64,000 nucleotides of DNA. Source: Octopus vulgaris (Eukaryota). This document shows positions 18,601-27,600 of the stretch, one piece after another. Below the pieces are notes generated by a model, which saw nothing but the letters and a program-made list of their open reading frames with translations, had not been told where the DNA came from and searched no databases. The position numbers and the translations under genes are program-made. The first letter of the stretch is position 1. The number at the start of each line of letters is the position of its first letter. The DNA lies in NCBI GenBank assembly GCA_951406725.2, contig OX597814.1, forward strand, positions 136,958,001 to 137,022,000. The letters are read 5' to 3'.

Positions 18601-21600
18601 TATGTATGTATGTATGCATGCATGCATGTATGTATGTATGTATGTATGTATGTATGTATGTATGTATGTATGTATGTATGTATGTATGTGTGTGTGGATG
18701 TATATATGTATGTATGGAGGAATGGATGGATGGATGGATGGATGGATGGATGAATGGGTGGGTGGGTGGATGCGTATATATCGTCGTCGTCATCGTCCTT
18801 GTCGTTTTAATGTCCTCATTTCCGTCAGAATTTACTGAGGCAGATTTTCCACAGTCGAAAGCTCTTCCTCTTGCCAACCTTCACCTGCTTCAAATTAAGT
18901 CCCTATTTCCTCGTGGCCACAACTTTTTGTCACGGGAGTTTGGAAACGGAAGACACAGCTTGTATGACACATGACCTATGTTTGGTAGCTGAGTAGACTG
19001 GAGCTACGTGAAGGGAAGTGATTTGCTCAAGAACACAACGTGTCACCCGGTCCAGGCCTCGACATCACAATCTTACTATCACATTATTTACATCATTTAC
19101 ATTTGACGGATATTTGTCCTCATCTTGTTTGTTGTTAACACAACGTTTCGGCTGATTTACCCTCCATTCTTCATCAGGTATATTGGGGAAATTTTGAACC
19201 AGGGTTCTCATTCCTAAGGTATTTTTCGATGTTGTCGTTGTTGTTATTATTATTATTGAGTGAGAGAGCAGTTCATGCCATCAAAGTGACACTGGGGTAA
19301 AATATACGAAGCCCAATATACCCATCATGACTATCCGTCTGATAAGGGCACACCAGGCACATGCATCACAACCATATGTGCGCGGCATGGTGATCTCATA
19401 TCAAGATAAACTGCACATGACCTTGCAGGTGGGGCCCAGTTAGAATTTTCTTCAGGTTGAGTAGCCCATCCCGCTCAAACGGTCCCTGAATAAGGGTTGT
19501 TTAAGGATGTTGAAAAACCCACCCATGTCTCCAGAGGTGAATTATTAAAACCCCAAAGAATCCCTCTCAACACATGGCTATGATGCTCCCCCACTACTTC
19601 TGCTCGTGATCAGAGATGCACATATCGTCAGCCACTAAGGGACATGCTCAACTGGTTACGGTCAAACAACTGACAAGCAAATCTGTGGTATTGAGCAGAA
19701 TATTTGCTGTAGCCCATCTTTTATTATTATTATTATTATTATTATTGAGTGAGAGAGCAGTGCATGCCATCAAAGTGACACTGGGGTAAAATATACGAAG
19801 CCCAATATACCCATCATGACTACCCGTCTGATAAAGGTACACCAGGCACATGCATCACAACCATATGTGCGCAACATGGTGATCTCATATCAAGATAAAC
19901 AGCACATGACCTTGCAGGTGGGGCCCAGTTAGAATTTTCTTCAGGTTGAGTAGCCCATCCCGCTCAAAAGGTCCCTGAATAAGGGTTGTTTAAGGATGTT
20001 GAAAGAACCACCCATGTTTCCAGAGGTAAATTATTCAAACCCCAAAGAATCCCTCTCAACACATGGCTATGATGCTCCCCCACTACTTCTGCTCGTGATC
20101 AGAGATGCACATATCGTCAGCCACTAAGGGACATGCTCAACTGGTTAAGGTCAAACAACTGACAAGCAAATCTGTGGTATTGAGCAGAATATTTGCTGTA
20201 GCCCATCTTTTATACCAAGACAAAACAATGTACATGATAGCACTTCCAATCAGTTAAGATCAGAAGCCATGAGAGCCACTGCCTGGTACGGCATTATTAT
20301 TATTATTATTATTATTATTATTATTATTATTATTATTATTATTATTATTATTATTATTATTATTATTATTATTATTATTATTATTATTATTATTATTATT
20401 ATTATTATTATTATTATTATTATTATTATTATTATTATTATCATTATTATTATTATTATTATTATTATTATTATTATTATTATTATTATTATTGAGTGAG
20501 AGAGCAATACATGCCATCAAAGTGACACTGGGGTAATATATACGAAGCCCAGTATACCCATCATGACTACTCGTCTGATAAGGATACACCAGGCACATGC
20601 ATCACATCCATATGTGCGCGACATGGTGATCTCATATCAAGATAAACAGCGCATGGGGCCCAGTTAGAATTTTGTTCTGGTCGAGTAACCCATCCTGCTC
20701 AAAAGGCCCCTGAATAAGGATTGTTTATTGATGTTGAACAAACCACCCATGTTTCCAAAGGTGAATTATCCAAACCTCCAAGAATTCCTTTCAATACACG
20801 GCTATGATGCTCCCCCACTACTTCTGCTCATGATCAGAGATGCACATATTGTCAGCCACTAAAGGACATGGTCAAGTGGTTAAGGTCAAACAACTGACAA
20901 GCAAATCTGTGGTATTCAGCAGAATATTTGCTGTAGCCCATCTTTTATACCAAGACAAAACAATGTACAGGATAACATTTCAAATCAGTTAAGATCAGAA
21001 GCCATGAGAGCTACTATCTGGTACTGTATCAGGGCATAATATGTGATATTGAGCAGGATATTTTTTTTTTTATTATTATTATTATTATTATTATTATTAT
21101 TATTATTATTATTATTATTATTATTATTATTATTATTATTATTATTATTATTATTATTATTATTATTATTATTATTATTATTATTATTATTATTATTATT
21201 ATTATTATTATTATTATTATTATTATTATTATTATTATTATTATTATTATTATTATTATTATTATTATTATTATTATTATTATTATTATTATTATTATTA
21301 TTATTATTATTATTATTATTATTATTATTATTATTATTATTATTATTATTATTATTATTATTATTATTATTATTATTATTATTATTATTATTATTATTAT
21401 TATTATTATTATTATTATTATTATTATTATTATTATTATTATTATTATTATTATTATTATTATTATTATTATTATTATTATTATTATTATTATTATTATT
21501 ATTATTATTATTATTATTATTATTATTATTATTATTATTATTATTATTATTATTATTATTATTATTATTATTATTATTATTATTATTATTATTATTATTA

Positions 21601-24600: not shown

Positions 24601-27600
24601 ATTTTTATCAGTGGGGACGCTTACTTCTATTAGTCTGCAGGTATTTTCTTCCCTGTTTTTAACAATTATGTCTGGTCGATTAGCCTTGATCGTTCTGTCA
24701 GTGTTGACTGGAAAATCCCAGAGGATGGTGACATATTTACCTTCAACAACTGGCTGAGGATGGTGTTCATACCAGTTAGCAGGAGTGTCGGATTTGTAGT
24801 GTTTACATATCTTCCAATGTATATACTGTCCTACCCTATCGTGGCGATTTTTGTATTCGTTTGGTGTCAGCACAGGACATCCCGAAACGAGATGGTCTAT
24901 CGTTTCGTCAAATGTGTCGCAGAATCTGCATTTAGGGTCAGTACCGTTTCGGAGAACGTTAGCCTGGTAATTTCTGGTAAACAAGCTTTGATCTTGTGCT
25001 GCCATTATGAAACCTTCAGTCTCTGCTTTCAATCCAGAGCTCTTCAGCCACTGATGGGTTGTTGCTTGGTCTACATCAGCATTTTGGCTTCGGAGAATAT
25101 ATTGTCCATGCAGGGGCTTCTGGCTCCACCGCCTCTCAATTTGATTCTGCCCGTTCTTTTTTGCAGTCTGCTTGATTCGCTTTGCTTGCTTGGTAGCAGT
25201 GGTTTCCGGCTCTTCATCTGATTCAAGGTTAATGTCTAGTTCCCTTTCGAACTTATAAGCTTCCTTGACAATAGAATGCAGCTTTTTGTTGCTTTCGTGT
25301 TCGCACACAAGTCGCAGCATCCAGTCCTTTGTACTAGATAGGTACCTGTTCATTCCTACAGTAGAGGTCTTATAGCACAGCTCTAATTGCATCATTCCTC
25401 TCCCCCCGCTGCTTCTAGGTAGGTACAAGCGGTCTACATCTGCCTTAGGGTGGTGCATGCACTTGGATGTCAGTAACTTTCTTGTCTTCCTGTCTAAGCG
25501 TTGGAGTTCCGTAAGGTTCCAGTTGATGATATTAAAACTGTACTGAACTACTGGAAGTGCCAGGGTGTTAATGGCCTCAATGCAATTTTTGGAGTTGAGT
25601 TCAGTCTTCAGTACAAGCCTTATTCTCCTATAGTATTCCTTTCTTATTTTTTCCTTCATAGTAGCATGATGTATACCATCTCCTTCGTTGATTCCTAGGT
25701 ATTTGTAACTTTCCTGTGGGTCAAGTTCCTTGATGGTAGCGTCAATATCTAATTTAACAGAAGCTGTTTGCCTGAGCTTGCCTCTTACAAAAGTTGCTTT
25801 AGCACACTTATCAAGGCCAAAATCCATTCCGATATCATTGCTAAACTCTTTAACAGTTGTTAGCAGCCCTTCTAGCTCTTGGTCATTCCTGGCAAACAGC
25901 TTTAGGTCGTCCATATAGAAAAGATGGTTTATTAATTTACTGAAAACTTTGTACCCATATCTGGTACTATCCAATTCGTTTGAGAGTGGGATCAGTGCCA
26001 TGCAAAAAAGTAATGGAGAGAGGGAGTCACCTTGAAAGATGCCTCGTTTGATGTTGATGCTGTTGGACTGGCTCATCCCATTACTATGGCTTAGAAAGAG
26101 ACGTGTGTTCCACATGGTCATGCTATTCTCTAAGAATTTTGAGACGACAGGAGAGATCTTGTATATCTCAAGGGCCTTGAGTATCCATTTATGTGGGACA
26201 CTGTCATACGCTTTCCTGTAGTCTATCCATGCCATACTCAGGTTTTTGTTTTTGCTCCGGCAATTCTCTACAATCATTCTGTTTATGAGCAATTGGTCTT
26301 TGCACCCATAAGAGTTTCTTTTACAAGAGCTCCGGGCTGAATAACAACATGGATGTTCCCTGGGAGCCTCTCTCCAAAAAACGAATTTAATCCAACAACA
26401 TCGTTGCAATGGAAGAAAGGTTCCACAAAATATCTTTTCCAAACTTTCTTTTAAGGCAAAGTAACTAAAAAGTCCGAACTATTATTGCCATATATAGTAT
26501 GGTTTTCTTTCTTTTATGCATAATAATTCCATGTGACATGCATAAGAAATAGAAGCGAACATCAGAGCTCTTGAAAGACAGTAAGTACATAAATTGATTA
26601 ATTAATTAATTAATTAAATAAGTATACATGCAACTGTTTATGCATACACGTAGACATTTTAATTGTAAGGTATACATGCAACTGTTTGTGCATGCATGTA
26701 CACATTTTAATTATAAAGCATAAATAATGCTTACACGCGCTCACACGTACACACAGAAAGAAAAACCACGTTAAGATCAGAAGCCATGAGAGCTACTATA
26801 TGGTACTGTATCAGGGCATAATATGTGATATTGAGCAGGATATTTTTTTATTATTATTATTATTATTATTATTATTATTATTATTATTATTATTATTATT
26901 ATTATTATTATTATTATTATTATTATTATTATTATTATTATTATTATTATTATTATTATTATTATTATTATTATTATTATTATTCAGATCACTGCCTGGA
27001 ATCGAACACGGAATCTTGGGGTTAGTAGCCTGCGCTCTTAACCGCTACACCACTGGCATATGGCTGGAGAGTATATCAGTCGAAACGTTGTGTCACAAGA
27101 AACAAGATGAGGGCAAATATCTATCAAATGTAAATAATGTACATAATTCCTCATCTCAAATATACAACTGTACTTACTATCACGAGTTCAACATTCTAAT
27201 ATATACATACTTACGTACATACATACATACATACATACATACATATATATATATATATATATATATATATATATATATATATATATATATATATATATAT
27301 ATATATATATATATATATATATAAGTGCGACTCCGGCACTCGGGATATTCAGTCTTAGCCTGAGTATAAATTTAGTAAAGTGAACGTGTATTTGCAAACT
27401 GATTCGATTTCTAATAACACTGACTTCAAGTATGTAATTGCAGCCAATAACTCGGGCTACCTTTATTGAGCCTAGTTGCAGTTCATCGTCTGGCGGTCGT
27501 CTTAGAGGTGCCCTGTGTCAAAAAATATCATTCGTAGCAGACGTTCTCTCGACATCATTCACACGCGCATAACTCGGGCTCAGAAGTTACAGCTTGAGCT

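Follow-up and report, generated by a model that had tools for sequence, protein, structure and literature searches.

How did four retroelement copies, all in one direction, come to lie inside a single AAT microsatellite? The question is raised by an 8,090-bp block (19083-27172) in a stretch of Octopus vulgaris DNA of 64,000 nucleotides (assembly GCA_951406725.2, contig OX597814.1, positions 136,958,001 to 137,022,000), here called the window, whose own coordinates are used throughout. The block lies in an intron of a GPR158-like gene and is a single nested insertion in an older short interspersed element (SINE), with no mis-join. Quite probably it consists of a host element with a transfer RNA (tRNA)-like head, an internal AAT tract and a predicted hammerhead tail, inserted by Penelope-type machinery, and of four later target-primed insertions into the AAT.

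The older SINE, which is highly repeated in the contigs of public sequencing runs, and the direct repeat at the edges of the block are placed as follows.

18987-19082, plus strand: left part of the older SINE, which resumes at 27184-27200, the block being inserted within it
19072-19082, plus strand: left copy of the outer target-site duplication, 11 bp, CTTACTATCAC
27173-27183, plus strand: right copy of the outer target-site duplication, 11 bp, CTTACTATCAC

No exact match between the two junction zones (51 x 51 bases) is longer than CTTACTATCAC, and by simple arithmetic an 11-mer match between them is expected by chance about once in a thousand. Contigs of four public runs were aligned to 18790-19746, the AAT run 19224-19262 being skipped. 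Loose ends of these contigs pile up at 19081 and 19083 and mark the family boundary; their consensus at 19083 matches about 25 extra bases of the right-hand end of the block and stops at the base equal to 27172. This boundary is independent of the 11-bp duplication. With the block and one duplicate removed, the flanks, once rejoined, match two other copies in the window over the junction, at 53343-53253 (E 1e-10) and at 8627-8666 (E 0.001). Because of the duplication, the loose-end boundary and the restored older SINE, both sides are assigned to one nested locus. A preliminary description of the window had placed such a block, nested in one microsatellite, at 19081-27165; the nesting holds, with limits corrected to 19083 and 27172. 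One contig with nine differences crosses the left junction by 26 bases and was not counted (bar 31 bases). None of the runs listed by the run search was recorded as RNA (best shares 0.62-0.72).

Along the minus strand the block runs from the head (27058-26986) through (AAT)45, an 80-bp copy of the 5' end of unit 3, 441 bp of unplaced DNA and a long interspersed element (LINE, 26328-24219) to (AAT)~1050, unit 3, (AAT)67, unit 2, (AAT)8, unit 1, (AAT)5 and the tail (19257-19083). Beyond the head follows an inverted copy of the tail's end (27058-27172). Its parts are listed below in this order; RT stands for reverse transcriptase, REL for restriction-enzyme-like endonuclease (also written RLE), UTR for untranslated region and TRF for Tandem Repeats Finder.

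27058-27172, plus strand: inverted 5'-truncated tail copy, without CUGAUGA, with an extension of about 25 bp absent from the left arm
26986-27058, minus strand: tRNA-like head with A-box-like and B-box-like motif matches
26848-26985, minus strand: head-side (AAT)45 tract, a TRF-type repeat call
26770-26849, minus strand: 80-bp copy of the unit 3 5' end, source 20988-21067, one difference in 80
26329-26769, minus strand: unplaced DNA at the LINE 5' junction, 441 bp
24219-26328, minus strand: Dong-like LINE, 5'-truncated inside the RT, with RT, CCHC knuckle, REL and a 3' UTR of about 155 bp
21070-24218, minus strand: long AAT tract at the LINE 3' end, 3,149 bp as assembled, near-perfect
20495-21068, minus strand: unit 3, of another subfamily, 8-9% from units 1 and 2, with a rearranged 5' piece of about 30 bp
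20293-20494, minus strand: (AAT)67 tract between units 2 and 3
19748-20292, minus strand: unit 2, about 545 bp, AAT on both sides
19259-19722, minus strand: unit 1, 5'-truncated, AAT on both sides
19083-19257, minus strand: outer-element 3' tail, non-autonomous, beginning with degenerate AAT/AAC repeats
19138-19181, minus strand: predicted minimal type I hammerhead (CUGAUGA, extra A, helix II, GAAA, palindromic ACGU, helix I)

The main parts named in the preliminary description, namely inverted arms, three non-coding units, a 3.1-kb TAA tract and an RT-REL LINE, are all present. The arms (19083-19166 and 27147-27065) are 86.9% identical over 84 bp (E 2.6e-23), and the DNA between the outer element's tail and head measures 7,728 bp, where about 7.7 kb had been estimated. 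All four inserts, the three units and the LINE, have minus-strand orientation and end in (AAT)n, again as described; their shared direction would follow from the polarity of the target tract.

The arms represent a 3' duplicate, inverted in the manner of Penelope, of an element that has a tRNA-like head and a predicted minimal hammerhead. The outer element belongs to a system other than Dong, of Penelope type. Insertions of Penelope-like elements (PLEs) typically have, at their 5' end, an inverted copy that is 5'-truncated and, at one end, an extension of 30-40 bp (PMC8557442). At this locus the inverted 5'-truncated copy is accompanied by a one-sided extension of about 25 bp. A reading of the arms as a DNA transposon of the miniature inverted-repeat type was rejected on their unequal length, their 13% divergence, the hammerhead and the one-sided extension.

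The predicted hammerhead, a descriptor match in the terminal repeat that is degraded in this copy, has all four traits given for the minimal hammerheads of metazoan PLEs in PMC4209133: an extra base after A9, G10.1-C11.1, a palindromic 15.2-16.2 and a short helix I. A descriptor requiring at least four of five pairs in helix II missed it; relaxed to three of five, as paired in this copy, the descriptor found the tail site as one of three in the window, where 100 shuffled windows averaged 0.06 hits each. With the letters that most other copies have, predicted pairing in helices I and II is five out of five, and because of this the fold is read as kept by the family and decayed here. The tail family is clearly highly repeated, its summed contig depth being about 1e6 against about 20 on the unique flank, a depth that is not a copy number. 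Nothing separates the head from the inverted arm, and the 5' side of the head shows neither AAT nor a duplication; T4 runs are absent from the sense strand of both head and tail. From these features it appears rather probable that the outer element is tRNA-headed and PLE-mobilised, and it may represent an undescribed kind of SINE. Copies of the form head-(AAT)n-tail presumably occur in Octopus assemblies. Exact-pattern scans for the tail or the unit gave no match in metagenome, genome and viral contigs. Rfam scans of two sub-regions gave no relevant match, and the whole-window scan was dominated by microsatellite matches.

Other traces of such elements occur in the window. A second minimal-hammerhead family (CUGANGA, short helix II, GAAACGUU) is present in two plus-strand copies at 10703-10737 and 54580-54615 and is probably another Penelope-derived repeat. 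A Penelope-like remnant at 46733-48165 contains a GIY-YIG frame on the minus strand (46733-47056, Pfam E 8e-4) and a hammerhead-like motif whose helix II is long (48054, plus strand, fold z -3.5); the hammerhead of this remnant differs from that of the tail. By eye, GIY-YIG-like frames were also recognised at 1032-1448 and at 32800-33306; they have no Pfam hit.

The open reading frame (ORF) of the LINE extends on the minus strand from 26328 to 24373, over 651 uninterrupted codons from the RT motif CKRNSYG to the stop, and contains RVT_1 (Pfam, E 6.5e-23) together with CCHC and PD..(D/E) motifs. RT, CCHC knuckle and PD-(D/E)xK endonuclease thus follow each other in one ORF, the domain architecture given for RLE LINEs in PMC5678591. 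This copy has E in the place of the second catalytic D and, close to the C-terminus, a 3-residue gap relative to eight of nine aligned relatives. The closest relatives are 60-84% identical and mostly unnamed, a cluster look-up having supplied no element names; those with solved structures are R2 proteins only (E 1e-26 to 1e-11). All seven full-length relatives have RVT_1 and zf-RVT as their only meaningful Pfam hits and no APE domain, the N-terminus being missing from the window copy. Elements of the Dong/R4 clade have one ORF that lacks both an N-terminal APE domain and CCHH fingers. The RT tree comprises 57 of 121 sequences, with no named clade reference among them. In this tree the LINE protein (24376-26328) falls in one 13-row clade (SH-aLRT 99) with Penaeus and Clytia proteins, to which it is 70-72% identical, a hint of horizontal transfer among marine animals.

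Among 41 fetched loci of LINE relatives, 14 were usable (ORF end plus 100 bases) for a 3' scan within 260 bases. Sense (AAT)n of at least three units follows the ORF in eight of the 14 and antisense runs in none; sense runs of this length also lie upstream in 8 of 25 relatives, three of these eight loci being near-identical, against a background of 0 in 102 windows. TAA repeats thus occur on both sides among the relatives, in fixed orientation, which bears out the TAA association proposed for the LINE in the preliminary description. Since sense AAT at both ends is expected of Dong, which targets TAA (PMC3812793, PMC3774820), the lineage appears to behave like Dong, and membership in Dong is likely. 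Dong-R4 is reported as the most numerous recently active LINE group of O. vulgaris, with 1,129 insertions, and amounts to 92.7 Mb in 51 families in the supplement of the same paper (PMC13282606). In one relative (L004:3820-3968) an (AAT)6 run is followed directly by a 5'-truncated REL-coding piece of similar sequence; going by that arrangement, stacking at AAT occurs in another animal also.

The 80-bp repeat brackets the LINE and the 441-bp segment in the geometry of a two-nick target duplication, with nick 1 in the AAT tract upstream of unit 3 and nick 2 80 bases into unit 3. It likely arose as a long target duplication when the LINE inserted; template switching to local pre-mRNA would leave an identical arrangement. 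Whichever its origin, the LINE entered the head-side tract and not the 3' tail of an earlier element. The 441-bp segment has no other match within the window and contains a 48-bp tandem pair and a (TTAA)n run. In the long AAT tract (TRF, 1,053 copies) eight positions break the period of three, and two small phase slips occur at 22411-22414 and near 24041. The tract has likely grown by slippage; inflation of its length by long-read consensus in the assembly is somewhat unlikely.

The units are non-coding, all six translation frames being closed, as displayed for unit 2; they are highly repeated in the contigs of public runs and contain T4 runs in sense. All six copies in the window lie on the minus strand. 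Clean AAT borders four of them on both sides, one being the independent locus at 48424-48851. TRF calls units 1 and 2 as a 489-bp tandem at 97%. They differ at 14 of 464 positions, and unit 2 differs from the 48.4-kb copy at 12 of 428; at no variant site do units 1 and 2 agree against both the 48.4-kb copy and unit 3. Unit 1 as a recent tandem duplicate of unit 2 was rejected on these counts. As the distance between units 1 and 2 is no smaller than that from unit 2 to the 48.4-kb copy, the two are read as independent insertions of one young subfamily. Because AAT stands on both sides, the mobilising enzyme of the unit is likely a Dong-type REL protein, but not evidently that of this LINE family. 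Rfam gave no match to the unit in the sub-region scan, and a home-made descriptor without positive control gave no hit for a fold like that of hepatitis delta virus (HDV). An internal unit fragment at 29176-29563, without 3' end and without AAT, differs from unit 3 at 13 of 388 positions. It is flanked by an exact 25-bp direct repeat (29161-29185 and 29563-29587), whose end resembles the unit at the junction, and looks like an internally primed insertion at a staggered cut.

The proposed history would begin with entry of the host element into the older SINE, leaving the 11-bp duplication, the inverted 5'-truncated tail copy and the one-sided extension of about 25 bp; the structure is observed, and the footprint is the usual one of Penelope-like integration. 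Three copies of the abundant unit of about 550 bp would then have inserted independently in the AAT tract, whose polarity would set their direction. Next, the Dong-like LINE would have been primed in the head-side tract, with a second nick at least 80 bases further, inside unit 3, so that the stretch between was duplicated. Reverse transcription would have halted part of the way through the RT gene, and the 5' junction would have captured 441 bp of foreign DNA. Last, the AAT run at the LINE 3' end may have expanded by slippage or been inflated in assembly. The divergences (arms 13% over 84 bp, units 3%, inner duplication 1 in 80) are consistent with ageing from the outside in. Each insertion splits one tract in two, and by arithmetic the targets multiply. 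The preliminary description had gone further and proposed self-feeding, with each new tail a target for the next insertion; the single placeable event, that of the LINE, gives no support for new tails as preferred targets, and for the units insertion tail and original tract are indistinguishable. Added to that description are the 80-bp repeat, the 441-bp segment, the 11-bp duplication, the tRNA-like head, the hammerhead motif and the 5' truncation of the LINE.

Several observations weigh against this history. The age order is based on few sites. Six of the 14 usable LINE relatives have no AAT run after the ORF, one of them (L035) ending in (GAA)n, and PMC9115989 describes a full-length Dong of O. 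bimaculoides as without sign of recent activity. In sub-region scans Rfam matched neither hammerhead nor head, and ARAGORN did not call the head. The hammerhead of this copy does not fold as such (z 0.09), single-strand folds of hammerhead and head being no better than those of shuffles. The head-tail join was not seen in other copies by the contig alignment, which skipped the AAT run 19224-19262. Of the six unit copies, one old copy has degenerate flanks and the internal fragment has no AAT. The 3' end of the unit has no similarity to the LINE 3' UTR, 494 of 500 shuffles scoring as well.

Some of these points lend themselves to other explanations. The tRNA-like head could be a separate AAT-tailed SINE in a headless Penelope-derived remnant, the host then being an ordinary truncated PLE repeat pair; opposite-strand minimal hammerhead pairs 100-700 bp apart are known from truncated PLEs (PMC4209133), and the contig alignment, which skipped the AAT run, showed the head-tail join in no other copy. 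We consider this unlikely, as the head adjoins the inverted arm without AAT or duplication on its 5' side and the sense strand is free of T4 stops through the tail. The units, for their part, might have accumulated passively, as AAT-tailed sequences moved by another LINE, for example RTE, without target preference, with tail pairing to prime them or chance to retain them. The lack of a common 3' end between unit and Dong-like LINE, the fragment at 29176-29563 in non-repeat DNA with its own 25-bp duplication and the microsatellite ends of octopus RTEs (PMC9115989) would fit. What makes it distinctly unlikely is that AAT also borders the 5' side of all four young copies whose 3' end is intact, 5'-truncated ones and the 48.4-kb locus among them.

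Local duplication or unequal exchange between AAT tracts would instead have copied unit 1 from unit 2 and made the 80-bp repeat by recombination or template switch. In its favour are the 97% tandem of units 1 and 2, the length of at least 80 bp, long for a target duplication, and the presence of unit 3 in sense in the host pre-mRNA as a possible switch template. It is very unlikely nonetheless, given that unit 1 is no nearer to unit 2 than a distant copy is, that the 80-bp repeat stands exactly where a two-nick duplication would place it and that a REL element with an exceptionally long duplication, R9, reportedly exists. Least of all do we expect an assembly artefact in which two loci were mis-joined via long AAT tracts, an extremely unlikely explanation; inflation of the 3.1-kb length only, by itself somewhat unlikely, is the more probable form of artefact. 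The 1,050-unit tract with its two small phase slips would allow an artefact, no aligned contig spans the block and there are no long reads among the listed runs, but both sides are linked to one locus by the restored SINE and by two independent duplications, an outer one of 11 bp and an inner one of 80 bp. Entry of a Penelope-type host element followed by four target-primed insertions therefore remains our preferred reading.

The host gene, on the minus strand of the window, encodes a GPR158/179 extracellular domain. By tblastn its exons lie at 51040-50087, 39824-39648 and 15331-15161, with more below, the first being 96% identical to an Octopus bimaculoides protein (P0121). The intron holding the block is the following.

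15332-39647, minus strand: host intron, 24,316 bp, with GT and AG ends, from the tblastn exon map

The block accounts for 33% of this length (8,090 of 24,316 bp), in line with the intron inflation suggested earlier. The introns of the gene also contain fragments of Transposase_1 (mariner-type, Pfam E 4e-6, 37086-37427) and DDE_Tnp_1_7 (piggyBac-type, Pfam E 7e-19, 16777-17091). All 15 perfect TTA/TAA runs of at least four units, from about five independent loci, read TTA on the plus strand and none TAA, and the six unit copies of the window all have minus-strand orientation, which is that of the host gene; a strand bias of repeats in introns is possible, in what is a small, post-hoc sample. 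A short coding remnant at 6650-7056, which looks RTE-like by its motif, runs into a mixed ATT/ATC microsatellite.

Stacking as such is likely an ordinary outcome of known Dong behaviour, Dong-R4 being already reported as abundant and active in Octopus, and the pile-up alone is of little weight, though it makes up one third of a 24-kb intron. From the 80-bp repeat, as a likely target duplication, it would seem that a Dong endonuclease can place its nicks far apart. If a tRNA-headed PLE passenger is correctly recognised, the definition of SINEs would extend past LINE partners, the unsolved integration of PLEs, with its inverted copy, one-sided tail and duplication, could be studied on short natural substrates numbering in the thousands, and part of the large 'unclassified SINE' class of O. 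vulgaris, for which 893 recently active families are given (PMC13282606), would be misassigned. More tentatively, and with somewhat more doubt than expectation, the host could be a polymerase III SINE moved by Penelope-like elements and not by LINEs, combining a tRNA head with a PLE tail that bears a dimer-type hammerhead, among the commonest repeats of Octopus, whose AAT tract seeds targets for Dong and its passengers genome-wide and drives the growth of introns and microsatellites. One retroelement order would then build landing sites for another.

The literature searched, with Repbase and most subscription papers outside its scope, yielded no description of the outer element, the unit or the long duplication, and comparison is with the nearest known systems. 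The LINE resembles Dong (Dong of B. mori, DongAg, DongBg and Octopus Dong-R4) in RT, CCHC and REL within one ORF and in the sense AAT at both ends of its relatives. It differs in its 5' truncation, E for the second catalytic D, the 3-residue gap, the likely duplication of at least 80 bp and the 3.1-kb AAT, in a comparison with no named reference aligned. With the rotifer element R9, reportedly marked by an exceptionally long target duplication, it shares REL and a long duplication, that of the LINE being likely. R9 belongs to the R2 group and is specific for ribosomal DNA, not microsatellite-targeting. Entamoeba EhSINE1 is a short non-coding passenger of a REL element and uses its partner's target. 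The R2 short internally deleted elements (SIDEs) are likewise short non-coding REL passengers with their partner's target (PMC3774820). The unit of about 550 bp is unlike SIDEs and EhSINE1 in giving no hit to the HDV-like descriptor, which had no positive control, and in having no 3' end in common with the adjacent LINE.

The outer element shares with PLEs and PLE-derived non-LTR retrozymes the traits of the minimal hammerhead, the inverted 5'-truncated copy and the one-sided extension. Minimal hammerheads of metazoan Penelope elements cleave weakly and as dimers (PMC4209133), and PLE-derived retrozymes are a near precedent (bioRxiv 10.64898/2026.07.22.740005). The outer element is unlike both in the absence of an ORF, the tRNA-like head, the internal AAT and its dispersed, not tandem, occurrence here. 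A tRNA-related head is present in SM-alpha of schistosomes. SM-alpha and Sj-alpha are SINE-like elements with a type I hammerhead (PMC8490949), likened to the outer element by description and not by sequence; the octopus element is set apart from them by another phylum, a minimal hammerhead and a clear PLE-style footprint.

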